In this document: positions 3,492-64,000 of the stretch, one piece after another | How positions within the stretch are numbered: the stretch's first letter is position 1 | How the letters are laid out: every line of letters begins with the position of its first letter | From: Vicinamibacterales bacterium | GTDB lineage: Bacteria > Acidobacteriota > Vicinamibacteria > Vicinamibacterales > UBA2999 | Reading direction: 5' to 3' | Assembly: GCA_044347565.1 (NCBI GenBank) | Contig: JBIKUN010000006.1 | Location: forward strand, 415 to 64,414 | DNA length: 64,000 bases | Made by a program: the position numbers and the translations under genes | The notes under the pieces: model-generated | Seen by the model: only the letters and a program-made list of their open reading frames with translations | Database searches by the model: none | Told to the model about the DNA's origin: nothing

Positions 3492-3517
3492 CGCGGCCCC
3501 GCGGCCGCCGCCTCACC

Positions 3518-33414: not shown

Positions 33415-35238
33415 ATGCGCATTCGCCGCCTGCTGCTCACGTCCGCCGCCGTGCTTGTCTGCGGCACCGCCATCGCCATCGGACAGCAGCAGGCCGCCGA
33501 GGCCCCGGCGGCGCTGCGTCCCGGCTTCACGCGCCCCGCCGTCGCCGGGCTGAACGGCCTGGTCACGTCGGGCCATCCGATTGCGTCATCCGCCGGGCTC
33601 CAGATCCTGCTCAAGGGCGGCAACGCGTTTGACGCCGCGGCGGCCGTGGGCTCGATGGCCGCGCTCGGTGAACCCGAGATGAACGGCATCGGCGGCAACG
33701 GCTTCATGACCATTTATCACAAGGGCACCGGCAAGGTCTGGTCGCTCTCGATGGCCGGGGCGGCGCCGAAGGGCATCGTGCCCGCCGACATGACGCCCGA
33801 GACGCTGAATGCCGGCATGAAGGCCGGCATCGTGCCCGGCAACATCGGCGGCTATCTCATCCAGCTCCAGCGCTTCGGCACGATGAAGGTGGCGGATGTC
33901 TTCGCCACGGCGATCGACTACGCCGAGAAGGGCTACCCGATCGACCCGATGCTTGCCGCCTCGATCGCGCGCGGCCGGAACAACCTGGCGAAGTATCCGA
34001 CCACGGCGAAGATCTTCCTGCCGAACGGCGAGCCGCTCAAAGCGGGCGACCTGCTGAAGAATCCCGACTACGCGGCCACACTGCGTAAGATGGTCGAGGC
34101 CGAAGCGCAGGCGCTCGCGAAGGGCGCGTCGCGCGAAGCCGCCATCCAGGCCGCCTACGACCGCTTCTACAAGGGCGACATCGCACAGGAGATCGACCGC
34201 TTCTTCAAGGCGAACGGCGGCGTGCTCACGGCGGCGGATCTCGCGGCCTACAAGCCCGAATGGCAGGAGCCGCTGCACACGACCTATCGCGGCCACGACG
34301 TCTACAGCAACCCGGCCACCTCACGCGGCGGCTTCGAAGTGCTGATGGGCGCGAACCTCATCGAGCCGGTGGACCTGAAGGCCGCCGGCTCCGGATCGCC
34401 CGCGGCGCTCCACGCGGCGATTGAAGCGATCAAGATCTCGAAGGCCGACATCTACCGCTACGTCGCCGACCCGGCGTTCGTCTCGGTGCCGCAGGCCGGC
34501 CTCATCTCGCGCCGCTTCGCCGACGAACGCCGCAAGCTCTTCGATCCCGCGAAGGCGATTCTCTATCCGCCCGCCGGCATGCCGGAGGGCTCCCCCACGT
34601 CGTCGCCGCGAGCGCAGGGCCCGGCCTTCGACGACAACTACGACGGCGAACTCCACACGACGTCGTTCGAGATCGTCGACAAGTTCGGCAACGCCGTCGG
34701 CTGCACGCCCACGCTTGGCGGTCTCTTCGGCAACAACGTCGTCGTCGGCAACACGGGGCTGCTCCTCAACAACGGCATGCGCATCGGGTCGACATCGCCC
34801 TACCCCACCGACGTGAACTACGTGGGCGCCGGCAAGATTCCGATTCTCAACAACTCGCCGGTCGTGGTGCTGAAAGACGGCGCGCTCGCCTTCGTGTTCG
34901 GCACGCCCGGCGGTGAGACGATTGGCCAGACGGAATTTCAGGTGCTCTTGAATCTCGTGGACTTCCAGATGCCGGTGCAGGAAGCGATCGAAGCGCCGCG
35001 GTTCGTGCTCGACGCCACACCGAACTTCTACAAGCCGGGCGCCGCGATCACCGTGCAGATCGAAGGCCGCGTGCCGGCCCCGACGATCGCGGCGCTCAAG
35101 GCGATGGGCCACACCGTGCAGGTGCTGCCAGGCTGGGGCAGCCTGGGGCACATGCAGGTCATTCGCGTGGACCCGAAAACCGGCGCCAAGACCGCCGGCG
35201 CCGACCCGCGCCGCACCGGCTACGCCATGGGGTACTGA
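33415..35238 (+). CDS. ggt: Gamma-glutamyltransferase
   Basis: ATG 33415 with GAAGGAG 8 nt upstream and a signal peptide. GGT motifs GGNAFDAAAAV, GIGGNGFM and the autoprocessing/nucleophile Thr in GELHTTSFEIVD. Confidence 0.9.
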   Translation: MRIRRLLLTSAAVLVCGTAIAIGQQQAAEAPAALRPGFTRPAVAGLNGLVTSGHPIASSAGLQILLKGGNAFDAAAAVGSMAALGEPEMNGIGGNGFMTIYHKGTGKVWSLSMAGAAPKGIVPADMTPETLNAGMKAGIVPGNIGGYLIQLQRFGTMKVADVFATAIDYAEKGYPIDPMLAASIARGRNNLAKYPTTAKIFLPNGEPLKAGDLLKNPDYAATLRKMVEAEAQALAKGASREAAIQAAYDRFYKGDIAQEIDRFFKANGGVLTAADLAAYKPEWQEPLHTTYRGHDVYSNPATSRGGFEVLMGANLIEPVDLKAAGSGSPAALHAAIEAIKISKADIYRYVADPAFVSVPQAGLISRRFADERRKLFDPAKAILYPPAGMPEGSPTSSPRAQGPAFDDNYDGELHTTSFEIVDKFGNAVGCTPTLGGLFGNNVVVGNTGLLLNNGMRIGSTSPYPTDVNYVGAGKIPILNNSPVVVLKDGALAFVFGTPGGETIGQTEFQVLLNLVDFQMPVQEAIEAPRFVLDATPNFYKPGAAITVQIEGRVPAPTIAALKAMGHTVQVLPGWGSLGHMQVIRVDPKTGAKTAGADPRRTGYAMGY

Positions 35239-35255: not shown

Positions 35256-36371
35256 ATGACCCTCGCTCGACGACTTGCCCTGGGTGTGGGCGCGCTGGCC
35301 GTGCTCATCGGCGCTGAGCGCGGCGCGTCGCATCTCGCAGCGCAGGCCACGCCCGTGCCGGTGTTCGCGGTGGACCCGCAGTGGCCCACGCTGCCGCCGC
35401 AGTGGACGCTCGGGCAGGTGACGGGCGTCGCCGTCGATGCGCAGGATCACGTGTGGGTGCTGCACCGGCCGTGGTCGCTCACCGATGACGAGAAGGCGCA
35501 GAACCCCGAGGCCGCGTGCTGCACCGCAGCGCCGCCGGTGCTCGAGTTCGACGCGAGCGGCCGCTACCTGGGGGGCTGGGGCGGAGCGGGCGCCGGCTAC
35601 GAGTGGCCCGAGGACGAACACGCCATTCACGTCGATCACAAGCGCAACGTCTGGATCACGTCGGCCGGCGGCCCGCGGCTGCGCGACGGCAAGGAGAACA
35701 TGATCCTGAAGTTCACGAGTGATGGCCGCTTCCTGTTCCAGATCGGGAAGCGCGGGCAGAGCAAGGGCTCACTCGACACCGCGAATGTGAACAACGCCGC
35801 CGACGTCTACGTCGACCCCAGGACCAACGAGCTCTACGTGGCCGACGGCTACGTGAACCGGCGCGTGATCGTCTACGACGCCGATACCGGCGCCTTCAAG
35901 CGGATGTGGGGCGCCTACGGCAAGCCGCCCGACGACGCCGCGTCGAAAGTGGTCACGACCTCCGGACCGCCGCCGGCGCAGTTCAACCTCGTGCATGGCA
36001 TCCGTGTGTCGACGGACGGCAAGGTCTACGTGAACGATCGCCGCAACAACCGCATGCAGGTATTCACGACGGCCGGCGTCTACGAGCGCGAGATCTTCAT
36101 CGACCGCACAACGAAGCTGCTCGGCACGTCGTTCGCCGTGGGCTTCTCACCGGACGCGGGCCAGCGCTTCCTCTACCTCGCAGATGCCGGCAACGGCAAG
36201 GTGCGCATCTACGACCGCGCCACCCTCACCGAAGTGGGCGCCTTCGGCCGCATCGGCCGCTACGCCGGACAGTTCATCTTCCTGCATGCGCTCGCGGTCG
36301 ACTCGAAGGGCGATCTCTACACGGCCGAAGTGGGCACCGGACGGCGCGTGCAGAAGTTCGTGAAGAGATAG
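35256..36371 (+). CDS. PAL-like (peptidyl-alpha-hydroxyglycine alpha-amidating lyase family) NHL propeller, paralogue 1
   Basis: Signal peptide. The PAL catalytic pattern is conserved: VWVLHRPW, DEHAIHVD, ADGYVNRR, LVHGIRV, NDRRNNRM, FLHALAV. Starts 17 nt after ggt. Confidence 0.75.
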   Translation: MTLARRLALGVGALAVLIGAERGASHLAAQATPVPVFAVDPQWPTLPPQWTLGQVTGVAVDAQDHVWVLHRPWSLTDDEKAQNPEAACCTAAPPVLEFDASGRYLGGWGGAGAGYEWPEDEHAIHVDHKRNVWITSAGGPRLRDGKENMILKFTSDGRFLFQIGKRGQSKGSLDTANVNNAADVYVDPRTNELYVADGYVNRRVIVYDADTGAFKRMWGAYGKPPDDAASKVVTTSGPPPAQFNLVHGIRVSTDGKVYVNDRRNNRMQVFTTAGVYEREIFIDRTTKLLGTSFAVGFSPDAGQRFLYLADAGNGKVRIYDRATLTEVGAFGRIGRYAGQFIFLHALAVDSKGDLYTAEVGTGRRVQKFVKR

Positions 36372-36489: not shown

Positions 36490-37323
36490 CTATCGTCCCG
36501 CGGCGGCGCGGCCCAGCGTGATGCTGGCGTCGTTCGGCACGAGCAGGCCGAGGAAGCCTTCCTTGACCCGCTGCGCCACGTCCTTCTCGTTCGCCGTCAG
36601 CATGTTCACGAGCTTCGTGCGCGAGGTCTCGGCCAGGATCTCCTGGTTGCCCTTCTCCGCCGCCGCCCGGTCGCCCTTGAGCGCGCCGGTCAGGCTGCCG
36701 ATGCCGCAGGCGAGCACGCTGTAGCCGCCGATGTCGGCGATGTCCTTGGCCTGCGCGACGGCGCCCGGGTCCTCGAGCATCAGCATCGCGACGACATTCC
36801 CGGTCGGGTTGGCGGCCGACCAGACGTTGGCGCGCGCGTCGGCGAAGAGGCTGATGGCCTGGCGGCCCTGATCGAGGTTCTCGATGTGCGGCAGCGTGAT
36901 GCCGTCGGCGCCCATGGCGAGGATCTCCTTGATGCGCACGAGCGTCTCGGCCGGGCCGGCCTCGGCCAGCGAGGGGATGCGCACGAGCAGCATCTTGCGC
37001 CCCGGCGTGCCCTTCTTGCCGAGGCCTTCGCTGATCGCCATCACGGCGTTGCGGTCGTAGGCGCCTTCGAGGTTCAGGAACACGAAGTCGATGAGCGGGT
37101 TCTTCGCCAGCGCCTGGCCGCCGGCCACGGTGTAGACCGCAGGGCCTCGATTCGGGCCGCGCGGCGCCGGGTTCTCGTCGGGCACGAATACCCCGAACGC
37201 GGTCTTGCCGGCTGCCCACAGGTCGAACGTCGCCGGACGCGCCGTCTGGGCCAGAGCCGCCCCCGGGCCAACCAGACCAGCCAGCACCACCAGCACCGCC
37301 CCCGCCACCTGTTGCTTGCTCAT
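36490..37323 (-). CDS. HpcH/HpaI aldolase / citrate-lyase-beta-fold protein with a predicted signal peptide
   Basis: Start trimmed to ATG 37323 (MSKQQVAGAVLVVLAGLVGPGAALAQ). TIM-barrel pattern IDFVFLNLEG, LVRIPS, ILAMGADGITLPHIEN, MLMLEDP. Confidence 0.55.
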   Translation of the reverse strand: MSKQQVAGAVLVVLAGLVGPGAALAQTARPATFDLWAAGKTAFGVFVPDENPAPRGPNRGPAVYTVAGGQALAKNPLIDFVFLNLEGAYDRNAVMAISEGLGKKGTPGRKMLLVRIPSLAEAGPAETLVRIKEILAMGADGITLPHIENLDQGRQAISLFADARANVWSAANPTGNVVAMLMLEDPGAVAQAKDIADIGGYSVLACGIGSLTGALKGDRAAAEKGNQEILAETSRTKLVNMLTANEKDVAQRVKEGFLGLLVPNDASITLGRAAAGR

Positions 37324-37404
37324 CGTGTCGCGCCTCCGTGAATCCGAGGGGCCGATCATACCGCGCCGGATGGCCCCGCGCCGCCCACGCTAGAATGAGG
37401 CGTC

Positions 37405-52923: not shown

Positions 52924-54495
52924 CTACTGCGCGGCGAGATTCGGGCGGCCCTTGCGCAGCACGAACTTCTGGATCTTGCCGGTGGCGGTCTTCGGCAGTT
53001 CGGAGACCGGCGAGAAGCTGTGCGGCACCTTGAAGTGGGCCAGATGCCCGCGGCAGAACGCGCGGAGTTCGGCCGGCGCCGCCTCGCAGCCGGCGCGGAA
53101 CACGATGAAGGCGTGCGGCGCTTCGCCCCACTTCTCATCGGGAAAGCCGACGACCGCCGCTTCGAGCACGGCCGCGTGGCGCAGCAGCGTCGCTTCCACT
53201 TCGACCGACGAGATGTTCTCGCCACCGCTGATGATGACGTCCTTCAGGCGATCGCGGATCTCGATGTAGCCGTCGGGATGCACGACGGCGGCATCACCCG
53301 AGTGGAACCAGCCATCGCCCATGACGGCGCTGGTCGCCGCCGGGTCCTGGTAGTAGCCGGCCATCACGACGTTGCCGCGCACCACGATCTCGCCGCGCGT
53401 CTCACCATCCGCCGGCACCTCGACGCCCGCCGCGTCGATGACGCGCACTTCCCCGCCGGTCAGCTGCTCCACGCCCTGCCGCGCCTTCTGGCGCGCGCGA
53501 TCGTCGCGCGCGAGCGCAGCGTGTTCCGGCAGCGGCTCGCAGATGGTCATGAGCGGCGAGGTCTCGGTGAGGCCGTAGAGCTGCGTCACGACCCAGCCGA
53601 GGTCGTCTTCGATGCGCTGGATGGTGGCGGCGGCCGGCGGCGCGCCGGCCGTGAGCACACGCACGCCCGCGGGCACACCGGCCTTGAACTCCGCCGGGGC
53701 GTTCGCGAGCGCGATGAGCACGGTGGGCGCGGCGCAGAGGAACGTCACCTGTTCCTGCGAGATGAGGCGGAAGACGGCCACGGGCTCGACCTTGCGCAGG
53801 CACACATGGCGTCCGCCGATGGCGGTCACGATCCACGTGAACGTCCAGCCGTTGGCGTGGAACATCGGCAGCGTCCACAGGTAGCGATCCGCCGCCGACA
53901 TCGGCATGTGGACGAGCATGCCCACGGCGTTCACCCAGGCATTCCGGTGCGTGATCATCACGCCCTTCGGGCGCGAGGTGGTGCCGCTCGTGTAGTTGAT
54001 GGTCAGCAGATCCGACTCGGCCACCGCCGGGCGCACGGGCGCGGGCGACGCGGCGGCGACGAGCGCGGCGTAGTCGAGCCAGCCGTCGCGCGCGCCGCCG
54101 AGCGCCACGAAGTGCCGCACGCCCGGCAGCCGCGGTCTCAGGCGTTCAACGGCGTCGACGAAGTCCGGATCGACACACACCACCGTGGCGCCGCTGTGCT
54201 GGATGAGGTACTCGAACTCTTCCGGTGCCAGGCGGAAGTTGATCGGCACGAGCACGGCGCCAATCTGCGGCACCGCGTAGAACGACGCCAGCTGCTGGTG
54301 CGTGTTCGGCGCGATGTAGGCCACGCGGTCGCCCGGCGCGACCCCGAGCGTCTGCAGCGCTGCCGACCAGCGGTCGCAGTGATCGAAGAACTGCGCGTAG
54401 GTCCAGCGCAGATCGCCGTCCACGACCGCCTCACGCGCGGCGTAGAGCCGTCGCGCCCGGCGCATGAACTCGAGCGGACTGAGCGGAATCTCCAT
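52924..54495 (-). CDS. AMP-dependent acyl-CoA synthetase/ligase
   Basis: AMP-binding signature INYTSGTTSRPKGVMITHRN, plus YGLTET, GDAAVVHPDGYIEIRDRLKD and a C-terminal PKTATGKIQK. Confidence 0.92.
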   Translation of the reverse strand: MEIPLSPLEFMRRARRLYAAREAVVDGDLRWTYAQFFDHCDRWSAALQTLGVAPGDRVAYIAPNTHQQLASFYAVPQIGAVLVPINFRLAPEEFEYLIQHSGATVVCVDPDFVDAVERLRPRLPGVRHFVALGGARDGWLDYAALVAAASPAPVRPAVAESDLLTINYTSGTTSRPKGVMITHRNAWVNAVGMLVHMPMSAADRYLWTLPMFHANGWTFTWIVTAIGGRHVCLRKVEPVAVFRLISQEQVTFLCAAPTVLIALANAPAEFKAGVPAGVRVLTAGAPPAAATIQRIEDDLGWVVTQLYGLTETSPLMTICEPLPEHAALARDDRARQKARQGVEQLTGGEVRVIDAAGVEVPADGETRGEIVVRGNVVMAGYYQDPAATSAVMGDGWFHSGDAAVVHPDGYIEIRDRLKDVIISGGENISSVEVEATLLRHAAVLEAAVVGFPDEKWGEAPHAFIVFRAGCEAAPAELRAFCRGHLAHFKVPHSFSPVSELPKTATGKIQKFVLRKGRPNLAAQ

Positions 54496-54532
54496 CGTGT
54501 CGCTCGCGCGGGCGGATGGCCGCTCGTGCCGC

Positions 54533-55966
54533 CTACCGCTGGCGCGGCTGCTGCGACGTCGTGAGCTTCGCGCCGGGGCCCGAGAGCACCTGGCTGTCGA
54601 CCGTGTACTCGGTGAACGCCTGGTACATCTCGTCCCAGCTCTGCTCCGACCAGTAGACCGGCAGGTGCGGGGCCGGATTCCAGCGGTTCTTCACCGAGTT
54701 GTCGTAGATGCCGAGGCCCAGGATCTTGCTGCCGGCCGGGATCTTCAGCGGCTCTTTCAGCTCGTAGTTGAACTGCCAGTTGAAGTCGAACTTCGGCACG
54801 TCGAGGATGGTCTGCTCGCGGCCGTCGGGATACACGATCACCCAGCGCAGACTCTTGCCGCGCAGATGCATGTGCGGTGACATCGCGTAGAGCGTGATGG
54901 GTTCGGTGACCGGCGTGATGCCGATGATCGACCAGTTCTCGACGTAGGGCGGAATGTTGGGCGTGGTGCGGCTGCGGCGCGTGCTGCCGGTATCCGCCTT
55001 GTAGAGCACTTCCTTGCCTTCGGCGCGATAGAGCGAGGCCGACGCGGTGTCGGTGGCGAGCGGATCGCCGGCCTGGCGGATGAGCAGTTCGTGCGTGACC
55101 GGCACCTTGTTGAACCAGATGCCCAGACGCGAGCGGTCCGTCTGGGGCGTGCCGGTCGGGTTGTAGTGGAGCTGCCAGTTCAGATACTTGCCGGCAGGAA
55201 TGCGCTTGCCCACGGCGGCGCGATGCACGTCCACGCCGCGGCCGGGCACCCACGAGAGCAGCTTCGAGGCGCCGGGCAGCGTGCCGGTGTCGGTCTTCGG
55301 CAGGCCGGCTTCGGTGCGCTCGATGAAGGGCTTGCCGTCGGGGCCGACGAGACGGCCGTCCACCACCTGCGAGCCTTCCGGGATATCCACGACGAAGACG
55401 CCAGAGTGATGCACCACCGAGCGGTTGCCCGGACGCAGTTCCAGCACCTCGGCGAACTTGTCTTCGGTGAACGGAATCTTCGAGAAGAACGTCTGCACGC
55501 CGAGTTCACCTTCGGCGGGAATCTCGAACTCGACGGGCATCTCGAGCACCACGTCGGGCTCGCGGCCATACGTCCAGCCTTCGACGAAGGTCGGCGCCGG
55601 CGGCAGGTCGGCGTCGTTGCCGCGCGGCGCGCCGGCGTCGGCCCACGCGACGAGCGTGGCGATTTCCTTGTCGCTCAGGCTGACGTCGTTGCGCATCGGC
55701 AGCGACAGCGCCGGGTTGGCGCCCCAGGGCGGCATCTCGCGGCTCGCCACCTTGGCCTTGATGGCCTTGGCCCACGGCCGGGCCTCCTGGTACGACAGCA
55801 GCGACATCGGCGCGACCTCGCCGGCGCGATGACAGTTCGCACACTTGGCGAACATGATCGGCGCGACGTCTTTCGCGAAGGTCGGCGCGGCGGGCGCGGA
55901 CTGGGCGGCGGCGCTGCCCGCGAATCCGGCAACACTGATGAGGCCTGCAATCAGGCGACGCGTCAT
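54533..55966 (-). CDS. Periplasmic mono-haem cytochrome c fused to a PHM/DBH-like copper type II monooxygenase domain
   Basis: ATG 55966 (GGGGAG upstream) with signal peptide MTRRLIAGLISVAGFAGSAAAQ. Haem motif CANCH (55829..55843). Cu-ligand pattern VVHHSGVF, WQLHYNP, SPHMHLRG, SWDEMYQAF. Only the last 477 codons of listed ORF 54533..56476 are used. Confidence 0.7.
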   Translation of the reverse strand: MTRRLIAGLISVAGFAGSAAAQSAPAAPTFAKDVAPIMFAKCANCHRAGEVAPMSLLSYQEARPWAKAIKAKVASREMPPWGANPALSLPMRNDVSLSDKEIATLVAWADAGAPRGNDADLPPAPTFVEGWTYGREPDVVLEMPVEFEIPAEGELGVQTFFSKIPFTEDKFAEVLELRPGNRSVVHHSGVFVVDIPEGSQVVDGRLVGPDGKPFIERTEAGLPKTDTGTLPGASKLLSWVPGRGVDVHRAAVGKRIPAGKYLNWQLHYNPTGTPQTDRSRLGIWFNKVPVTHELLIRQAGDPLATDTASASLYRAEGKEVLYKADTGSTRRSRTTPNIPPYVENWSIIGITPVTEPITLYAMSPHMHLRGKSLRWVIVYPDGREQTILDVPKFDFNWQFNYELKEPLKIPAGSKILGLGIYDNSVKNRWNPAPHLPVYWSEQSWDEMYQAFTEYTVDSQVLSGPGAKLTTSQQPRQR

Positions 55967-56078
55967 GGATGGCTCCCCGAGAAGAGTGGACCGGGCACGC
56001 ACCGAACGGCCAAGTTTAGCGCAGGTCGGCCCGCGGATCCGGCCCGACGGCAGGGAACCCGCCGGTAGAATAACGGCC

Positions 56079-57218
56079 ATGCCCGGCGCGCCACAGACCC
56101 GGCGGTGGGCCGCTGGCGCGGCCGTGGCGGCGCTCGTGCTGGCGGTCCGCGTGACGGCGCACGACCTGGAGCGCACGATCGTGCACCTCACGCTCGCGCC
56201 CGACGGCGCGTTCACCCTGCGCCTCGCCCACGATCCGGCCTGGCTGCTGCTGCGGATGGAGTCGTTCGCCGGGGGCACCGTGGCAGAGCAGGGTTCGACC
56301 GTCGGCCGTGATGCCCGGCTCACCGCGCTCGCGCCGGCGGCCATCGACCGCGTGGTGCTCTTCGTGGAGATGGTCGAGCCCGGCGGAGCGGTGGTGAGCC
56401 ACGAAGTGCGGCCGGTGTCGAGCGAGTACTCGCCACCGCCGGCGCAGACACCCGGCGGCCAGTTCGCCCTCGCCACCTACACCCTGCGCGGCCAGATGCC
56501 GCCCACCGCGCGCCGCGTTCGCTGGTACTACGGCATGGTCGCCGATCCGTATCCGCTGACCATCGCGCTCGCCGACGGCTCGACGCTGACCGAGTGGGTG
56601 CAGGGCGATGCGTGGAGCACCTCCCTGCCGCTCGGCGGCCCGTTCACGAGGCCCACGCTGGCCTCGCGGCTTGGGGAGTACCTGTGGCTCGGCTACACCC
56701 ACATCCTGCCCAGGGGGCTCGACCACATCCTCTTCGTCGTCGGGTTGTTCCTGCTCGCGGCCCGTCTGCGCCCGGTGCTGGTACAAGTCACAACCTTCAC
56801 GGTGGCCCATTCTCTGACGCTCGGCCTCGCGCTCTACGGCGTCGTGACCCTGCCGGCCGCGGTGGTCGAGCCGCTCATTGCGCTCTCGATCGTCTACGTC
56901 GCCGTCGAGAACCTGAGGACGCGGGAGCTGACACGGGCGCGGGTGGCGCTCGTGTTCCTGTTCGGCCTGCTGCACGGCCTCGGCTTCGCCGGCGTGCTCA
57001 CCGGCCTGCAGTTGCCGCGCGCCGACTTCGCGCTCGGGCTCGTGGGCTTCAACCTTGGCGTGGAGGCCGGCCAGCTCACCGTGATCGCGGCCGTGGCACT
57101 CGCCGTGGGCTGGTGGCGCGATCGCCCGTGGTATCACGCGCGCATCGTCGTGCCGGCCTCACTCGCGATCGCGGCGGTGGGACTCTACTGGACGGTAACG
57201 CGGCTTGCCGGCGGCTGA
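56079..57218 (+). CDS. HupE/UreJ-family metal permease with N-terminal periplasmic domain
   Basis: ATG 56079. The signal peptide ends ...LAVRVTA|HD. The C-terminal six-helix HupE_UreJ_2-like core has LDHILFVVGLFL, HSLTLGLAL and GLLHGLGFAG. Confidence 0.8.
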   Translation: MPGAPQTRRWAAGAAVAALVLAVRVTAHDLERTIVHLTLAPDGAFTLRLAHDPAWLLLRMESFAGGTVAEQGSTVGRDARLTALAPAAIDRVVLFVEMVEPGGAVVSHEVRPVSSEYSPPPAQTPGGQFALATYTLRGQMPPTARRVRWYYGMVADPYPLTIALADGSTLTEWVQGDAWSTSLPLGGPFTRPTLASRLGEYLWLGYTHILPRGLDHILFVVGLFLLAARLRPVLVQVTTFTVAHSLTLGLALYGVVTLPAAVVEPLIALSIVYVAVENLRTRELTRARVALVFLFGLLHGLGFAGVLTGLQLPRADFALGLVGFNLGVEAGQLTVIAAVALAVGWWRDRPWYHARIVVPASLAIAAVGLYWTVTRLAGG

Positions 57219-57257
57219 AGACACGGCCGCCGGGCGGCGCGGCCTGCGGGACCGCGG

Positions 57258-57380
57258 CTACCCGCTGCGCGCGATGTCGCGCAGGGCACTGCGGCTGGCC
57301 AACCCCGTCAGGGCGTCGACATCGATCATCGCCCGCAGGGAGACCTGCATGCGGTGCAGCTCGTCGTTCGTGGTGGCCAG
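57258..57380 (-). pseudogene. Short remnant resembling the linker and start of a GGDEF domain
   Basis: Hand translation of the minus strand gives (stop)LATTNDELHRMQVSLRAMIDVDALTGLASRSALRDIARSG(stop). D-x-LTGL-x-x-R after a coiled-coil-like linker is the canonical GGDEF entry. The reading frame is closed on both sides. Confidence 0.3.
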
Positions 57381-57680
57381 TTACGCCGGCGCGCAGGTGG
57401 GCCGGCTGCTCGCCCGCCTCGACGCGAAGGGCCTGACGGACTCGACCATCGTGGTCGTCGCCGGTGACCACGGCGAGGGCCTCGGCGAGCACGGGGAGTC
57501 CACGCACGGCATGCTCGCCTACGACTCGACGCTGCGCGTATCGCTCATCGTACGCGCGCCGTCGCTCACGCCGGCCACGGTCGCCGTGCCGGTGTCGCTC
57601 GCGGACGTCGCCGTGTCGGTGCTGCAGTTGAGCGGCGCCCGCGCCGTGCTGCCGGACGCCTCCACGCGCACGCTGCGCGA
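57379..57680 (+). pseudogene. C-terminal fragment (~100 aa) of a sulfatase gene
   Basis: SYAGAQVGRLLARLDAKGLTDSTIVVVAGDHGEGLGEHGESTHGMLAYDSTLRVSLIVRAPS...VSLADVAVSVLQLSG matches the conserved C-terminal third of type I sulfatases. The ~350 N-terminal residues with the Cys/Ser-x-P-x-R active site are missing. It is part of the fused listed ORF 57205..61452. Confidence 0.6.
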
Positions 57681-57711
57681 GCGCGCCCGGACGGACGGGC
57701 GCCCCTCGGAA

Positions 57712-58794
57712 CTACCGCGACGTGCCGGCCGGCTCGAACTTCTGGATGCGCTGACCGTAGGTGTCGGCCGCGTAGACCGCGCCCTTCGAGTCGACCACGA
57801 TGCCGTGCACCCAGTCGAACTGGCTGGGGCCGGTGCCCTGCGAGCCCCACGTCGCCAGCAGCTTGCCGTCGGCGAGCGAGAACTTGTGCACGCGCTCGAG
57901 CAGGTGGTCGGCCATGAAGCCCACGCCCTCGGTGCCCTTGCGCGAGATGTGGACATCCCAGGGATTCCACTCGTTCTTGATCTCGCGCTTGTAGTTCAGG
58001 TCCTTGTCGAACACCTGCAGGCGCTTGTTCTCGCGGTCGATGATGTAGAGGTTTTCCTGCGCGTCCACCGCCAGCTTGTGCGGCAGCACCCACTCGCCTG
58101 GACCGGTGCCCTTGTCGGCCGGGCCGCCGGCGCCCTTGCCCACCTGCTTGATGAACTTGCCGTTCTTGTCGTAGAGGATGACGCGGTTATTGCCGTAGCC
58201 GTCAGTCACGACGATATTGCCGCTCCTGAGCACGGCGATGCCCGACGGCAGGTCGAGGTGATTCGGGCCGTTGCCCTTCTCCATCGTCGTGCCGATCTGC
58301 AGCAGGAACTTGTCCATCTTCGGCGTCACCTTCACGATGCGGTGCGCATCACGCTCGATGATGTAGATGTTCCCTTCCCAGTCGACGGCGCCGGAGTGCT
58401 CCCAGTCCTTGTTGATGGTCTTGCCGTTGTACTCGAGGTCGCCGCCGGCGAGCAGCAGCTTGCCGGCAGTGTCGAAGATCATCACGGGCTTCGGACCGCG
58501 GTTGAAGACGTAAATGCGATCCTGCTGGTCGATGGCCAGCCCCGAGATACCGGGCTGATTGGTGGGCAGGCCGCCCCCGCCGCCCATCTGGCCGCGGGCG
58601 CGGCGCGCGGCCGCCTGCGCTTCGCGTTCGGCCGGCGGCGCCGGTGCCTCCTTCAACCCGAACCACATGCCGGCGGGCAGCGTGGGCCAGTTCGGCACCA
58701 GCCGGTACTGTTCGCCCTGCGCGGTCGCGCCCGAGGTCATCGCCAGCAGCAGCGCCAGCGCCGCCATCGTTCCACCCATCACACGTCGCATCAT
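57712..58794 (-). CDS. PAL-like (peptidyl-alpha-hydroxyglycine alpha-amidating lyase family) NHL propeller, paralogue 2
   Basis: Signal peptide MMRRVMGGTMAALALLLAMTSGATAQG. PAL catalytic pattern IYVFNRGP, WEHSGAVD, VTDGYGNNR, LPHKLAV, IIDRENKRLQVF, WVHGIVV. Confidence 0.8.
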   Translation of the reverse strand: MMRRVMGGTMAALALLLAMTSGATAQGEQYRLVPNWPTLPAGMWFGLKEAPAPPAEREAQAAARRARGQMGGGGGLPTNQPGISGLAIDQQDRIYVFNRGPKPVMIFDTAGKLLLAGGDLEYNGKTINKDWEHSGAVDWEGNIYIIERDAHRIVKVTPKMDKFLLQIGTTMEKGNGPNHLDLPSGIAVLRSGNIVVTDGYGNNRVILYDKNGKFIKQVGKGAGGPADKGTGPGEWVLPHKLAVDAQENLYIIDRENKRLQVFDKDLNYKREIKNEWNPWDVHISRKGTEGVGFMADHLLERVHKFSLADGKLLATWGSQGTGPSQFDWVHGIVVDSKGAVYAADTYGQRIQKFEPAGTSR

Positions 58795-58815
58795 GTCGAT
58801 TGCCTCAGAAGACTG

Positions 58816-59445
58816 CTAGCGCCCGCCGCCGGGCACGGGCTTGCGCCACCAGGGATTGCCGTAGTTCACGAACGGGCCGCCGTCGACCGAGACGGTCGTG
58901 GCCACGCGATAGGCGAGCGGCGCGTTCAGCCGCATCGTGTGCTTGATGCGCACCGTGTGGCCGCCGGCCGTGAAGGGCGCGCTCTCGAAGAGCACGTTGT
59001 AGAAGCCGCCGAGGTCGGCGCCGATGTGCGCGATCTGGTCGTAGCTGAAGCCGCGGCTGTCGACGACGTGCCGGGCGATCGCCTTGTAGTCCTTGTGGTA
59101 GCTGATCGTCTCGCGCACCGTGAACTTCCCGCCCGGGCCCTCGGCCTCGGTGAGGGCCTCATAGAACTTGCCGCCGAGCGCCCTGTAGGTCGTGGTGCCG
59201 GTGATGCGGCCGGCCTCGCCGAGCGGCCCTTCCGGCACGTCCCACTCGAACGTCCACGGCGCGCCGAGGAAGTAGGTGTCGAAGTCGAGCAGCGGCTGCT
59301 CGTCGTCGTGCCGGGTGGGCCGGCCACGGTCGGGCGCCTGCCCCTTGATTTCCTGACCGGCGGCGGCCGGCGCCGGTGGCTGGGCGGCGACGGCCGCCAC
59401 CGACACGAGCAGCCCCAGGCCCGCAAACAAGACACGCTGCAACAT
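58816..59445 (-). CDS. Secreted hypothetical protein (DUF1579/lipocalin-like?)
   Basis: 209 aa with signal peptide MLQRVLFAGLGLLVSVAAVAAQ. Ends 21 nt before the PAL-like gene. The family call is tentative. Confidence 0.6.
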   Translation of the reverse strand: MLQRVLFAGLGLLVSVAAVAAQPPAPAAAGQEIKGQAPDRGRPTRHDDEQPLLDFDTYFLGAPWTFEWDVPEGPLGEAGRITGTTTYRALGGKFYEALTEAEGPGGKFTVRETISYHKDYKAIARHVVDSRGFSYDQIAHIGADLGGFYNVLFESAPFTAGGHTVRIKHTMRLNAPLAYRVATTVSVDGGPFVNYGNPWWRKPVPGGGR

Positions 59446-59538
59446 AGGGTGCCTTTGTATACCCGGGCGCGCGCCGCGTCAACGCGAGACACATTCGCAG
59501 ACGCCCGGGCCGGCCCGACTGCGGTACACTCCCGCGCC

Positions 59539-61452
59539 ATGCCGACTCGTGCGCCCGCCCACCAGGCCGCAGGCCCCCTCCAGATTCGTGGCACGCTGGC
59601 CACGCGCTACGCCGACGTGTTCACGCCGGCGGCGCTCACCGCGCTCGAGTTGCTGGCGCCGTTCGACCGCGACCGCCAGGCGCTCATGCAGGCGCGGCTG
59701 GCGCGGCGGGCCGCCCGTGCCACCGGGCGCGCCCACATCGGCTTCCTGCCGGCCGATGCTGTCATCGGCCGCACATCGATCCGCGTGGCCGACGCCCGCG
59801 CCGGCGCCTTCGACGGCGGCGACATCCCGCCGGCCCTCGAGCGCCAGTGGATTCAGGGCACCGGCCCGGCGGCGCGGCCCGGCGCCGGGCTCGAGACCAG
59901 CCTGCGGAACGTGGCCTACGCGCTGCTCTCGGGCGCCGACGGCTGGATGTTCGACGGCGAAGACGCCCTCGGCCAGCGCTCCACGATGTCGCTCGACAAC
60001 CAGCGTAACCTGCGCCTGGCGCTCGGCCGCGAACAGGTCTTCCTCGCGGTCGCCGCCCAGGTGGCCGGCGAGATGAACCAGTGGGCGCAGGGTTTCTTCG
60101 GCCGCCCGATCGTCGCGGACTGGAAGCGCCAGCTCGACGTCACGGTGCCGGTCTTCCGCGCCCGCGGCCTCCACCTCGACGACCGCCACGTGCGCTGGGA
60201 GGACGGCACCGGCTTCTCGGCCTCGATCGTCGACCTCGTGCTCTATGTCGTGAACGTGCACACGCGGCTGGCCGCCCTGGGCCGGCCGGTGGTGCTGTAC
60301 CTGCCGAAGATCCAGACGGCCGAGGAAGCCGCCCTGTGGCACGACCTGCTGAGTGCCCTCGAAGCGCACCTCGCCCTGCCGCACGGCGCCATCAAGGCCT
60401 ACGTGCTCGTCGAGCAGCTCGAAGCCTGCTACCAGCTCATGGAGATCCGCGCCGCGCTCGGCGCGCACTTCGTGGGCTTCAACACCGGCCGCTGGGACTA
60501 CATCAACAGCGTGTCGGACGCGGTGGCGTGGGACGGCGAGTTCCGGAACCCGAACATCGACGCCATCACCATGACCTACGGCTACATGCGCGCCTACGAA
60601 GACCGCGTGCGCCGCGCCGTCAACACCCCCGATCGCCACGGCCGCACGGCGCTCTGGCAGGGCGGCATGGAGCCGAACATCCCCGTGGGCTCGGCGGCGG
60701 GCGTCGAGGCCGGCATGGCGCGCGCCGTGGCCGGGGCCGAACGGGAACGCACGGCCGGCGCCAGCGGCAAGTGGGTGGCGCACTGGAAGATGGTGCACAT
60801 CGTGCGGCCGGTATGGGAACGCGTCGGCGAAGCCAACCAGCGCGGACGCCGCTTCCCGCCGCTTGCCTACACGGACGACGACGCCTCGGCGCTGCGCGCG
60901 CTCGAGCCGGCGCCCCGCACCGTGCGCGGCGCCCGCGATCTGCTGAGCGTCGCCATCCAGTACGGCAACGCCTTCGGCCAGGGGCTGCAGGCGGCGGCCC
61001 TCAAGCCCGCGGACTTCTTCGGCAACGACGATGTCCTCTACCTGATGGAAGACATGGCCACGGGCGAGATCCGCGTCAGTATCCTCTGGGAATGGCTGCA
61101 CAAGCAGGCGCCGTTCACCGAGGCCGATGCCGGCACGGGCGTCGCCGCCGGCGACACGCTCACGCCGGCGCTCTTCGCCCGCCTGCTCGACGAGGAATAC
61201 GCGAAGCTCCTCGCCGCCAGCAGCCGCGACGTGCACGACGAGTCGAAGACCACAACGCTGCCCATTGCCCGCGATCTCGTGGCAACGCTCGTTGAGAGCC
61301 CGGCCAAGGCGCCGTGGTACATCGACCTGCTGAATCTCACGCTCGACAACACGGACCGTGAGGAATGCCGGCGGCGCGTCGCCGCCTACATGGCGGCATT
61401 CGCGGCGTCGGGTACGCGCGTGACCGCCAATCCGGAGTTCGACCAGGCCTAG
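59539..61452 (+). CDS. aceB: Malate synthase (A-type-like, long form)
   Basis: ATG 59539 inside listed ORF 57205..61452. FDGEDALG, FRARGLHLDDRHV, YLPKIQTAEEAALW, AYVLVEQLEA and GFNTGRWDYINS match the AceB catalytic motifs (E. coli NCGRWDYIFS). Confidence 0.85.
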   Translation: MPTRAPAHQAAGPLQIRGTLATRYADVFTPAALTALELLAPFDRDRQALMQARLARRAARATGRAHIGFLPADAVIGRTSIRVADARAGAFDGGDIPPALERQWIQGTGPAARPGAGLETSLRNVAYALLSGADGWMFDGEDALGQRSTMSLDNQRNLRLALGREQVFLAVAAQVAGEMNQWAQGFFGRPIVADWKRQLDVTVPVFRARGLHLDDRHVRWEDGTGFSASIVDLVLYVVNVHTRLAALGRPVVLYLPKIQTAEEAALWHDLLSALEAHLALPHGAIKAYVLVEQLEACYQLMEIRAALGAHFVGFNTGRWDYINSVSDAVAWDGEFRNPNIDAITMTYGYMRAYEDRVRRAVNTPDRHGRTALWQGGMEPNIPVGSAAGVEAGMARAVAGAERERTAGASGKWVAHWKMVHIVRPVWERVGEANQRGRRFPPLAYTDDDASALRALEPAPRTVRGARDLLSVAIQYGNAFGQGLQAAALKPADFFGNDDVLYLMEDMATGEIRVSILWEWLHKQAPFTEADAGTGVAAGDTLTPALFARLLDEEYAKLLAASSRDVHDESKTTTLPIARDLVATLVESPAKAPWYIDLLNLTLDNTDREECRRRVAAYMAAFAASGTRVTANPEFDQA

Positions 61453-61510: not shown

Positions 61511-63169
61511 TCAGCACGACACGCACTTGTGGTTGTTCGTCGCGCCGAGCTTCTCGAGCAGCGCGATCGTGGCCGGATACGGCTGCGTGCGCTGCACGGG
61601 ACCGTTGGCCATGTCGGCGGTGGTCTGCCCTTCGCGGTTCACCGTCGTGACGACGGCGCCTTTCGAGACGAGGTACTCGATCGACGCGTTGTCGCCGCGC
61701 GAGGCCGCCAGGTGCACGGCGGTGTTGCCTTCGTGATCCACCGCGTTCACGTCCGCCCCCACCTCTTCGACCAGGTACTTGATGGCGTGCAGGAAACCCG
61801 TCTCCGCGTAGCGATGCGAGTTGGCAGCAAAGCCTTCGCCGTAGCCCACACCGGCCGCGGCGAGCAGCGGCGGCACGGCGGGACCGCCCACCGGCACCGG
61901 CGGAATGCCCGAGACATCGGTGGTCTGGCGGATGCCGTCACCCGTGAACGGCCGCCCGGCCGGCTTCACGGTGGGAATATGCGGGTCGGCGCCGTACTGC
62001 ACGAGCAGCCGCATCGCCTCGACGTCACTCGCGTAGGCGGCGCGCCAGAACGGCGTGCCGCCGATCTCATCCACACCGGCGAAATCGGAATTGAACGCCT
62101 GATACCAGACCTTGCGGCGGATGCGCGCGTTCGGGTCGGCGCCCTTGTCGAGCAGCGCCTGCATCACCTGCAGATACGACGTGGTCTGCTGCTGATAACC
62201 CTTGGGATTCGGATACTGGGACTTGGGCGCCCAGCGATGGTTGAGCGTCGCGTAGAGCGGCGCCGCGCCGTTGGCAGCCGCGCGTGATACGTCGGCGCCT
62301 TTCGCCAGATACGCCATCGCCAGATCGAAGTGCCCGTTGATGACGGCCATCAGCAGCGGCGTCGTGCCGTCACCGGGATTCGCCTGGTTGATGTCGGCGC
62401 CACCGGCGAGCAGCGCCGTGGCTGACGCCGCGTAGCCCTCGCGCGTCGCGAAGAGCAGCGCCGTCAGGCCGCCCTGCGTGCCGATGAGTTCGTTGTAGCG
62501 GAACTGGCGCGTGAGGCCGGGAATCTGCGGCGCGCCAGCCGCTCCGCCGCGCGTGGGCGGATCGCCCGCGGTCAGCGTCGCCAGGTCTACGACCTTCGTC
62601 ACAAGACGATGGTCGGCGGCCTTGCCGAGCAGGAACGCCACGACATCGGCGCGGTCGAAGGCCGCCGCGAACATCAGTGCCGACTGCCCCTTCGCCTGTT
62701 CGAGTGCGTTCACGTCGGCACCGGCGGTGACGAGCCGCTGCACGGCGGCCAGCGTGCCCGATTCGGCGGCGAGCATCAGCGGGGTCGTGCCCGAGGTCGA
62801 CGTCGCCTTCACGTTCGCACCAGCCGCCACGAGCGCGTCCACGATGGGCGCGCTGCCGGCCCGGGCCGCGAGATGGAGGGGCGTGTAGCCGCCGAGGCGC
62901 GTCGTGGCACCGTGATTGGCGCCCGCATAGAGCAGCATCGTCGCGATGTCGGCCTGGCCCTTCATCGCCGCCCAGTGCAGCGCGGTCATGCCGTCGCCCT
63001 GCGCCGCGTTCACGTCGGCACCGGCGCGCAACATCGCGCGCACTTCCGCCGCATCGCCCCGCATCACTGCATTCGCCACCGGCGCATCGGGCGCCGCGCC
63101 AAGCAGCGCCGTAAGGCCCAGCACGAGGCCGGCGCCGGCGACACGTCCTGTCAGTCGTCGCATCAACAT
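61511..63169 (-). CDS. Secreted ankyrin-repeat protein
   Basis: Signal-like N-terminus, then repeated G-x-TPLH/ALH-x-AA-x-x-G modules (GMTALHWAAMKGQADIATMLLYAGAN, YTPLHLAARAGSAPIVDALVAAGAN, TTPLMLAAESG..., NTAVHLAASRGDNASIEYLVSKGA). Confidence 0.88.
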   Translation of the reverse strand: MLMRRLTGRVAGAGLVLGLTALLGAAPDAPVANAVMRGDAAEVRAMLRAGADVNAAQGDGMTALHWAAMKGQADIATMLLYAGANHGATTRLGGYTPLHLAARAGSAPIVDALVAAGANVKATSTSGTTPLMLAAESGTLAAVQRLVTAGADVNALEQAKGQSALMFAAAFDRADVVAFLLGKAADHRLVTKVVDLATLTAGDPPTRGGAAGAPQIPGLTRQFRYNELIGTQGGLTALLFATREGYAASATALLAGGADINQANPGDGTTPLLMAVINGHFDLAMAYLAKGADVSRAAANGAAPLYATLNHRWAPKSQYPNPKGYQQQTTSYLQVMQALLDKGADPNARIRRKVWYQAFNSDFAGVDEIGGTPFWRAAYASDVEAMRLLVQYGADPHIPTVKPAGRPFTGDGIRQTTDVSGIPPVPVGGPAVPPLLAAAGVGYGEGFAANSHRYAETGFLHAIKYLVEEVGADVNAVDHEGNTAVHLAASRGDNASIEYLVSKGAVVTTVNREGQTTADMANGPVQRTQPYPATIALLEKLGATNNHKCVSC

Positions 63170-63180
63170 CGCGTCTGCCC

Positions 63181-64000
63181 CTACTTCGCCGTCGTCGCGG
63201 CGGCGTGATTGAGGTCCATCGGCGCGGTGCTGTCGCCGAACGACGGCAGGTCCAGACCGAGCAGCTGCCCCACCGAGAGCATCGCGTTCGCCATCGGCGT
63301 GCCATCGGCCGCCTTGATGTGGAGCTGCCCCTTGAGCTGTCCACCCGCGTGACCGGCGAGGAACAGCGGGCAGCGCTTGTGGTTGTGCACGTTCGAATCG
63401 CCCATCGGCGAGCCGTACATCACGAGCGTCTGGTCGAGCAGCGTGCCGTCGCCCTCGGGCGTCTGCTTCAGCTTGTCGAGGAAGTACGGAATGAGGCTGA
63501 CGTGATAGGCGTTGATCTTCGCGAACTCGGTCACGCGGTCTTCGCGGCCCTGATGGTGCGAGGCCGGGTGGAAGCCGGTCGAGACGCCGCTCTCGGGATA
63601 CACACGGCCCGAGGCGTCGCGGCCCATCTTGAACGAGAACACGCGCGTGATGTCGCTTGCGAAGGCCACCGCCTGCAGGTCGAACATCAGCTTCACGTGT
63701 TCCGAGAACGAATCCGGCACGCCGATCGGCGCGCCGGGCAGCGCCCGCTGTTCGCCGCTGCTGTTGAGCGTCTCGACCGTGCGGATGCGGCGCTCGATCT
63801 CGCGCACGTCATCCAGGTAGTCACTGAGACGGGCCCGGTCCACCGGGCCGAGCGTCTTCTGCAGGCGGGCGATCTCGGTCGTCACCCAGTCGAGGATGCT
63901 CTTGTCTTCCCGGCGCCGGATGGCGCGTTCCTCCGCCGTGGCCCCCACGCCGAAGAGCTGGTCGAAGGCCACGCGCGGATCGCGGATCATCGGCAGCGGC
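63181..64000 (-). CDS. DUF1552 family protein; the N-terminus lies beyond the right edge
   Basis: The C-terminal ~270 aa have DUF1552 hallmarks (FHPASHHQG, MYGSPMGDSNVHNHKRCPLFLAGHAGG). The reading frame is open to the window end. Confidence 0.85.
   Translation of the reverse strand, partial: PLPMIRDPRVAFDQLFGVGATAEERAIRRREDKSILDWVTTEIARLQKTLGPVDRARLSDYLDDVREIERRIRTVETLNSSGEQRALPGAPIGVPDSFSEHVKLMFDLQAVAFASDITRVFSFKMGRDASGRVYPESGVSTGFHPASHHQGREDRVTEFAKINAYHVSLIPYFLDKLKQTPEGDGTLLDQTLVMYGSPMGDSNVHNHKRCPLFLAGHAGGQLKGQLHIKAADGTPMANAMLSVGQLLGLDLPSFGDSTAPMDLNHAAATTAK

Follow-up and report, generated by a model that had tools for sequence, protein, structure and literature searches.

A cytochrome c-fused, PHM-like protein and a PAL-like propeller in a conserved extracytoplasmic gene module of Vicinamibacterales

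Peptidylglycine α-hydroxylating monooxygenase (PHM) and its lyase partner (PAL) are the two enzymes of animal PAM, by which peptide hormones are amidated. Here, we describe a locus in a 64,000-nucleotide stretch of contig JBIKUN010000006.1 from a soil Vicinamibacterales bacterium (GenBank assembly GCA_044347565.1; this whole stretch is referred to below as the window), in which a gene for a PHM-like protein fused to a cytochrome c lies near a gene for a PAL-like NHL β-propeller. Between the two are a gene for an exported domain joined to a HupE_UreJ_2 permease and a sulfatase remnant; a nitrobindin-like β-barrel gene precedes the PAL-like gene by 21 nt in the same orientation, and genes for an acyl-CoA ligase and a malate synthase flank the set (Table 1). 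The products of all four module genes (PHM-like, PAL-like, β-barrel and the N-terminal-His/HupE protein) have an N-terminal signal peptide or transmembrane (TM) segment. A first-pass annotation, made from the sequence alone, had placed the ligase 37 nt downstream of the PHM-like gene, the PAL-like gene 1.7 kb away and the malate synthase in divergent orientation at 93 bp, and these spacings are confirmed; the true ATG of the HupE gene is at 56079, which leaves a 112-bp intergenic region to the divergent PHM-like gene. The G+C content is about 70% across the window, and its nearest public relatives are Vicinamibacterales/Acidobacteriota metagenome-assembled genomes (MAGs), with L001 and L066 at roughly 88–89% DNA identity. 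Rfam and promoter/terminator scans of 52–62 kb of the window returned nothing exceeding background.

The PHM-like gene encodes what is, judged by its sequence and by a structure model, an exported protein that joins a monohaem cytochrome c to a two-copper monooxygenase core of the PHM/DBH type. A signal peptide can be read from the sequence, and the haem motif C42-A-N-C45-H46 is present as the first-pass annotation had it. In an alignment of 40 homologues (31–86% identity) C42, C45 and H46 are invariant, as is Met78, a candidate distal haem ligand. The cytochrome domain has weak matches to PccH (4rlr) and to the haem region of hydrazine synthase, and Pfam Cytochrome_CBB3 falls below threshold on it (20.5 bits against 27). 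The copper core is barely seen by single-sequence searches, so that it took a family profile and a structure model to bring it out. With the single PHM-like sequence, Pfam Cu2_monoox_C stays below threshold (E = 0.0042; 17 bits against a cut-off of 23), the N-terminal model Cu2_monooxygen is unmatched, NCBIfam gives no match for the protein, and phmmer against PDB sequences finds nothing for PHM. BLASTP against rat PHM (a query sequence verified against PDB entries) reaches only E = 0.24, yet it pairs VVHHSGVF with TVHHMLLF and NWQLHY with VLQVHY.

The two Pfam models, which had been suggested as the check on this protein, do not recover it, whereas the family profile and the structure model do. 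The 40-sequence profile matches PHM at E = 1.1e-8 and human DBH at E = 2e-7, spanning both catalytic sub-domains, and in the PHM alignment the six proposed copper ligands H186, H187, H267, H365, H367 and M447 fall column by column on PHM H107, H108, H172, H242, H244 and M314. Across the same 40 homologues H186, H267, H365, H367 and M447 are invariant and H187 is kept in at least 90%. The AlphaFold2 (AF2) model, built on the alignment, has a pLDDT of 87.2 and a pTM of 0.85. In a Foldseek search of this model against the PDB, ranks 1–31 are all PHM/DBH (E = 4e-13 to 1e-9; the next fold comes at E = 1.7e-5), with target-normalised TM scores of up to 0.66. Because ranks 1–31 are exclusively PHM/DBH, the assignment is far beyond chance: the protein has the PHM/DBH fold, and the His and Met residues singled out earlier align to the copper sites CuH and CuM.

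This protein belongs to a large superfamily. Its close homologues number more than 5,400 and are named ‘cytochrome c’ or ‘hypothetical’ throughout; about 16,000 clusters at 50% identity match at E ≤ 1e-3, and 2,258 at E ≤ 1e-30. In many members an AhpC/TSA redoxin domain lies N-terminal to the cytochrome–PHM-like core, and the multidomain members P0244, P0287, P0311, P0314, P0340, P0359, P0371 and P0331 combine an N-terminal redoxin with varied C-terminal additions. Across the superfamily these additions are EF-hand, ankyrin, α/β-hydrolase, GDSL lipase and CBM48 domains; an M56 peptidase domain can also be found at the N terminus. The window protein carries neither a redoxin domain nor C-terminal additions. 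Built-in redox modules look like a family trait of the superfamily, which supports the idea that the haem feeds CuH and points to periplasmic oxidations of diverse kinds. Two or three cytochrome–PHM-like paralogues commonly stand in tandem in distant metagenome loci (L117, L127, L130, L132, L151 and L155). A cytochrome c–pyrroloquinoline quinone (PQQ) β-propeller dehydrogenase adjoins distant PHM-like genes in seven loci, and in L107 a PQQ dehydrogenase (1952–3766, + strand) sits between a PAL-like gene, accompanied by a TetR regulator, and the PHM-like gene.

The second catalytic gene encodes, to judge from its sequence, an exported six-bladed NHL propeller with a complete PAL active-site set. 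BLASTP against rat PAL (query verified against 3fvz and 5wm0) gives E = 8e-27 at 26% identity, in a colinear alignment of residues 81–353 with PAL positions 17–312 of 323; besides NHL, Pfam reports the 6-bladed propeller family DUF5128. The catalytic residues proposed for the protein are all in place, R99, H133, Y200, H239, R254 and H330 corresponding to PAL R533, H585, Y654, H690, R706 and H786, and all six are invariant in 20 PAL-like orthologues. The zinc-binding histidines (equivalents of H133, H239 and H330) are also kept in five other bacterial PAL-like sequences, and the equivalent of Arg99 in every PAL-like protein examined. In PAL, R533 is said to be the carboxylate partner of α-hydroxyhippurate (work by Chufan and colleagues from 2009); its retention as Arg99 argues for a carboxylate next to the hydroxylated carbon. 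PAL Met784 is replaced by Trp328 in the window protein. Some of the orthologues are labelled ‘peptidylamidoglycolate lyase’ (JGI), and the NCBI label is ‘6-bladed beta-propeller’.

A second PAL-like paralogue is present in the window at 35256–36371 (+). It has 371 amino acids, is 26% identical to the first and has the full R/H/Y/H/R/H set. The gene begins 18 nt after that of a periplasmic γ-glutamyltranspeptidase (33415–35238, +; Pfam E = 6e-123) and is convergent with a gene for an exported protein (36490–37359, −) whose weak match to HpcH/HpaI aldolase scores 22.8 bits, short of the cut-off of 25.

We compared the locus with related ones from an orthologue scan of one genome per GTDB species, in which 80 loci were kept (PHM-like identity 67–99%), and from a metagenome scan that added 10 close loci and 70 distant PHM-like loci (35–53% identity). 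The queries were the single PHM-like protein and a seven-sequence alignment, and genes upstream were counted in the 59 close loci whose upstream sequence reaches 5 kb or more. In 51 of these 59 loci a PAL-like orthologue precedes the PHM-like gene in the same orientation. From the end of the PAL-like gene to the start of the PHM-like gene the median distance is 1.67 kb (range 1.0–6.4 kb; 63 loci), and the pair stays together while its flanks are reshuffled, with the barrel gene in either orientation and the permease domain present or absent. The pairing first seen in the window is thus a linkage of the two families, and in five further loci (L022, L069, L074, L107 and L153) PAL-like genes of other subfamilies lie 0.1–2.7 kb from PHM-like genes. 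These other PAL-like proteins, which represent at least three subfamilies, are 26–28% identical to that of the window, and the four that were aligned (from L022, L069, L107 and L153) keep the six catalytic residues. In equal amounts of sequence, eight non-canonical PAL-like genes lie within 4 kb of a PHM-like gene and one at 4–10 kb. In L022 (3362–6901, +), three tandem PAL-like genes of differing subfamilies begin 121 bp after the PHM-like orthologue (76% identity).

The sulfatase remnant between the two genes is not part of the module. It covers only positions 212–300 of the 301 in the Pfam Sulfatase profile and is 46% identical to residues 262–346 of an intact 661-aa sulfatase in L161. Relatives have an intact 661-aa sulfatase-TPR gene, and up to about 20 kb of additional DNA separates their PAL-like and PHM-like genes; this suggests that a deletion in the window lineage brought the two close again.

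Two further components had been overlooked or only partly recognized. The first-pass annotation missed the conserved β-barrel gene, which adjoins in 46 of the 59 close loci and is also the commonest neighbour of the distant PHM-like genes (9–10 of 70 loci). PDB sequence and profile searches with the barrel gave no significant match, and DUF1579 scores 19.7 bits against a cut-off of 25.2. Its AF2 model (pLDDT 83.5) is a ten-stranded barrel, for which Foldseek returns nitrobindin, the spirocyclases OssO/OlmO and Rv2717c (target-normalised TM about 0.7–0.78; E = 1e-5 to 5e-4). As for the HupE/UreJ permease that had been placed between the two catalytic genes, the domain is real (residues ~203–350), but the conserved part of the gene is the N-terminal, non-HupE domain. 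In 72 of 79 close loci this exported domain of about 170 amino acids (56079–56690, +, in the window) is encoded divergently from the PHM-like gene, whose most conserved neighbour it is. It is fused to HupE_UreJ_2 in 51 loci and stands alone with one TM helix in 21 (for example L053:8954–9580, −). Some 20 loci might be read as lacking a HupE neighbour, a reading that we rejected because the N-terminal domain stands alone there. An Ala-His-Asp/Glu triplet (A27-H28-D29 in the window) is invariant exactly at the predicted signal-peptidase site, so that the mature protein would begin with His28. Pfam and PDB sequence/profile searches with the domain gave no match, and it contains no second conserved His; we refer to it as the N-terminal-His domain.

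Table 1. Features of the locus in window coordinates
Feature	Position	Strand	Details
Acyl-CoA ligase	52924–54495	−	523 aa, without signal peptide; Pfam AMP-binding E = 1.7e-84
Cytochrome c/PHM-like fusion	54533–55966	−	477 aa; signal peptide, monohaem cytochrome c, PHM/DBH-type two-copper core (from sequence and model)
Cytochrome c domain	55592–55885	−	Residues ~28–125; CxxCH at 55829–55843; Met78 (MPPW) at 55733–55735; codons checked
PHM-like catalytic core	54581–55564	−	Residues ~135–462
CuH ligand codons	H186 55409–55411; H187 55406–55408; H267 55166–55168	−	Codons checked
CuM ligand codons	H365 54872–54874; H367 54866–54868; M447 54626–54628	−	Codons checked
Near-invariant R369 codon	54860–54862	−	Codons checked
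N-terminal-His domain + HupE_UreJ_2 permease	56079–57218	+	379 aa; Pfam HupE_UreJ_2 E = 1.2e-47
Sulfatase remnant	57394–57654	+	Pfam Sulfatase E = 5.4e-12; C-terminal part only
PAL-like NHL propeller	57712–58794	−	360 aa, exported; Pfam NHL E = 1.1e-26
Nitrobindin-like β-barrel	58816–59445	−	209 aa, exported; weak DUF1579
Malate synthase A homologue	59539–61452	+	637 aa; Pfam MS_TIM-barrel E = 1.4e-41, MS_C

From the folds, ligand sets, invariance, export signals and synteny observed here, we infer an electron path, a reaction, a coupling of the two enzymes and roles for the accessory genes. Most likely, in our tentative judgement, which stops a little short of an even chance, the genes form a conserved extracytoplasmic module of Vicinamibacterales for oxidative N-dealkylation in two steps, of the ‘amidating’ type. 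The haem c of the PHM-like protein (Cys42/Cys45/His46, Met78) would accept single electrons from either the respiratory chain or a carrier in the periplasm and pass them to CuH (His186, His187 and His267), the fused haem taking the place of ascorbate. CuM (His365, His367 and Met447) would activate O2 and hydroxylate a C–H next to an amide nitrogen, and the PAL-like zinc propeller (His133, His239 and His330, with Tyr200, Arg254 and Arg99) would cleave the carbinolamide so formed, giving a primary amide together with glyoxylate, a different 2-oxo acid or an aldehyde. The nitrobindin-like barrel is a candidate carrier of a small or hydrophobic ligand, and the N-terminal-His domain, often fused to HupE, a candidate metal (copper) handling protein. 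The substrate need not be a classical glycine-extended peptide. A more specific version, in which the cytochrome c-fused PHM-type monooxygenase, the PAL-type zinc lyase, the nitrobindin-like carrier and the N-terminal-His metal-handling protein/permease form a four-gene, respiratory-chain-driven periplasmic amidating system that converts glycine-terminated or N-carboxymethyl amides to primary amides and glyoxylate, we regard as possible but doubtful.

Several observations weigh against a coupled amidating pair. At the PHM-like active site, the equivalents of PHM R240, N316 and Y318 are S363, Q449 and F451 in the profile alignment and vary within the family. In PHM these residues reportedly hold the carboxylate and backbone of the peptidylglycine (work by Prigge and colleagues from 1999); with such anchors lost, a glycine-extended peptide substrate is not simply to be assumed. 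The near-invariant R369 could, from its place in the sequence, be an alternative anion anchor: as it follows H365 by four residues within one β-strand, its side chain should point the way that the CuM histidines do. In the PAL-like protein, the Ca-site residue Asp787 of PAL has become Gly331 (Ala, Ser or Glu in other bacterial PAL-like proteins), and in a profile search of the PDB the Thin NHL domain (E = 1.6e-43) and TRIM71 (about 1e-26) outscore PAL (1.4e-25), placing the protein overall nearer to TRIM-type NHL domains, since generic NHL repeats dominate this score; the PAL assignment therefore relies on the set of active-site residues and on the extended colinear alignment. As to the linkage, the near/far enrichment of non-canonical PAL-like genes, counted by locus, is five against one, which is suggestive and not significant alone, and just two of the 70 distant loci have a PAL-like gene as a neighbour, so that the coupling characterizes this orthologue group and a few others but not the superfamily as a whole. 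In the five closest relatives (L001, L002, L003, L009 and L066) extra DNA splits the pair and puts the PAL-like gene at least 8–10 kb away, and on the L003 contig 25 kb separate the PHM-like gene from a block of β-barrel, PAL-like and malate synthase genes. The two genes do not form one operon, since an opposite-strand gene intervenes, and no candidate gene for a substrate or its precursor was found.

Some of these points bear on what the monooxygenase acts on. The protein may be a periplasmic hydroxylase for a non-glycine substrate, such as a hydrophobic or aromatic compound handed over by the barrel, in the way that DBH hydroxylates a benzylic carbon, with the PAL-like protein acting on a different hemiaminal or carbinolamine product or on something unrelated. 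We consider this rather unlikely. The missing carboxylate anchors of PHM are consistent with it, and the barrel, not PAL, is what most often accompanies the distant members (9–10 against 2 of 70 loci); barrels of this kind (nitrobindin, OssO/OlmO, Rv2717c) bind ligands or process small molecules, and the tandem paralogue arrays and the cytochrome c/PQQ dehydrogenases of seven loci look like diversified catabolic oxidation. Against this, the PAL-like linkage is strong in the present clade and recurs with other PAL-like subfamilies, the PAL-like active site is fully retained, including the Arg equivalent to R533, and in the window just 21 nt separate the barrel gene itself from the PAL-like gene, which shares its strand. 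The other points concern the linkage, which may be phylogenetic inertia because all 51 linked loci come from one order (PHM identity 67–91%). Two exported enzymes of separate processes would then have kept an inherited gene order without functional coupling, PAL-like paralogues being simply common: a second one sits 18 kb away in the window, beside the γ-glutamyltranspeptidase, the adjacency is lost in the closest relatives, and the two genes belong to separate transcription units. Inertia would leave unexplained that the flanks have been reshuffled many times while the pair was kept within about 1–3 kb, that independent juxtapositions with different PAL-like subfamilies exist, the tandem trio of L022 among them, and that the two folds are the same as those fused in animal PAM; we think it improbable.

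The strength of the link to the N-terminal-His gene, the most conserved and divergently transcribed neighbour (72/79), together with the peroxiredoxin-type AhpC/TSA domains of many paralogues, could also be taken to mean that the PHM-like protein is a haem–copper redox or copper-handling protein which works with the N-terminal-His/HupE partner in copper homeostasis or periplasmic redox defence, and is no substrate monooxygenase at all. This appears very improbable to us. The complete, invariant, mononuclear CuH and CuM (His2Met) arrangement and the fold of two domains belong to a family of catalytic monooxygenases that activate O2; enzymes, more typically than chaperones, form large families in which varied domains are fused; and a cuproenzyme would be just as likely to have a metal-handling neighbour.

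The two-step amidating module that we favour can be compared with animal PAM (PDB 1phm/1opm, 3fvz and 5wm0), with which it shares the two-domain copper fold, the CuH (His3) and CuM (His2Met) ligands, the NHL propeller repeats with three zinc-binding His, the catalytic Tyr and two Arg, and the extracytoplasmic location. Identity to PHM/DBH is 14–18% in structural alignment, and to PAL 26%. Unlike PAM, the window has two unfused genes, 1.7 kb apart, that belong to different transcription units; the anchors R240, N316 and Y318 are not kept, Gly replaces the Ca-site Asp of PAL, and the monooxygenase bears a fused haem c, so that an ascorbate/cytochrome b561 supply is presumably not needed. DBH, tyramine β-monooxygenase and MOXD1 (4zel) have the same core, and likewise an extra N-terminal domain, and match the window protein as well as PHM does (Foldseek E = 7.8e-13; profile E = 2e-7). 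The accessory domain of DBH, however, is a DOMON domain and not a cytochrome c, and DBH has no lyase partner, whereas the window clade has a conserved PAL-like one. The bacterial redoxin–cytochrome c–PHM-like proteins, annotated as redoxin or cytochrome c, have the same cytochrome–PHM-like core with the same invariant residues and belong to the same superfamily; in contrast to these redoxin-bearing relatives, the orthologue group of the window is linked to the PAL-like, N-terminal-His and β-barrel genes. The nearest functional analogy is MdgH/MdgL, which act on methylguanidine: the hydroxylase makes an unstable N-hydroxyalkyl intermediate and a dedicated lyase speeds its breakdown, a parallel to PHM/PAL drawn in that work (PMC12508155). 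MdgH, however, belongs to the Fe/2-oxoglutarate dioxygenases, MdgL is not homologous to PAL, and the system works in the cytoplasm (PMC12508155).

The accessory genes also have counterparts. Periplasmic copper-binding domains with a mature N-terminal His, fused to or paired with a permease, are known from CopC–CopD/YcnJ, YcnI and PmoD. The N-terminal-His/HupE protein resembles these in architecture, combining a signal peptide, a predicted mature His, a small exported domain and a permease or TM anchor with a place beside a putative cuproenzyme gene; no sequence or profile similarity was detected, and the permease is of the HupE/UreJ type (a Ni/Co family) and not CopD. The 209-aa barrel is alike in predicted fold to nitrobindin, OssO/OlmO and Rv2717c at about 7–16% identity, and differs in being exported and linked to PHM-like genes.

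Thus, the module presents known catalytic folds in a new arrangement, with a haem c fusion, split genes, a bacterial periplasmic setting and new conserved partners. Full-text literature searches turned up no described bacterial PHM, PAL or PHM+PAL system, in line with the first-pass annotation, which knew of no experimentally characterized bacterial pair, and the solved PHM/DBH structures that we retrieved are all animal (rat PHM, human DBH). If the four-gene system is real, it would be the first prokaryotic PHM/PAL pathway, and the monooxygenase the first PHM/DBH family member whose CuH is reduced by a covalently fused haem in place of ascorbate. Both halves of peptide amidation chemistry would then be found, linked, in prokaryotes, which bears on the origin of PAM. 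As far as is known, mechanistic work on PHM and DBH depends on ascorbate, and the way in which electrons get from CuH to CuM is a matter of continuing debate. For studying this transfer, a self-contained, bacterially expressible system would be available in a bacterial relative that carries its own haem donor. An ascorbate-independent amidating pair could moreover serve the production of C-terminally amidated peptides, and any function established here would propagate widely in soil metagenomes because the ~16,000 clusters at 50% identity are annotated only as ‘cytochrome c’ or ‘redoxin’.

The first-pass annotation had also argued that the neighbourhood fits the chemistry, with the ligase recalling the route from acyl-CoA through N-acylglycine to primary amide that has been proposed in mammals, and the malate synthase as the consumer of glyoxylate. 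This is not borne out, as both adjacencies are lineage-specific. Among the relatives examined, the ligase adjoins the PHM-like gene only in L001, L002, L004 and L066 and lies 7.5 kb off in L005, all of them in a subclade with a PHM identity of about 89% or more; outside the window, malate synthase keeps its adjacent place only in L004 and L161. With adjacency limited to the nearest subclade, the arguments from ligase and malate synthase are weak, and we rejected a functional tie of the module to these two genes as a general feature. The ligase (NF004837, 522 bits against a cut-off of 476) has no signal peptide, whereas the PHM-like and PAL-like proteins are exported. By sequence, the malate synthase gene encodes a malate synthase A homologue, with a match to PDB 3cux over the catalytic core (residues 201–557; E = 3e-42) and 226 bits to TIGR01344, far below the equivalog cut-off of 594. 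In line with the reported lack of an isocitrate lyase in the window, a search for its KKCGH signature found none in the 64 kb.

In the long-read MAGs L002 and L004 the acyl-CoA ligase matches in several shifted pieces, and in L161 (5993–7967) the malate synthase call covers only 404 aa where the window has 637 aa, with an opposite-strand 243-aa call over the rest; these could be assembly-error frameshifts or pseudogenes. The malate synthase gene of the window is flanked by genes for an exported ankyrin-repeat protein (552 aa; 61511–63169, −) and a DUF1552/HXXSHH-type protein (63181–63990, −). At least 15 other loci have an orthologue of the ankyrin protein (51–66% identity) some 8 kb downstream of the PHM-like gene, and in P0314 ankyrin repeats are fused to the PHM-like core.

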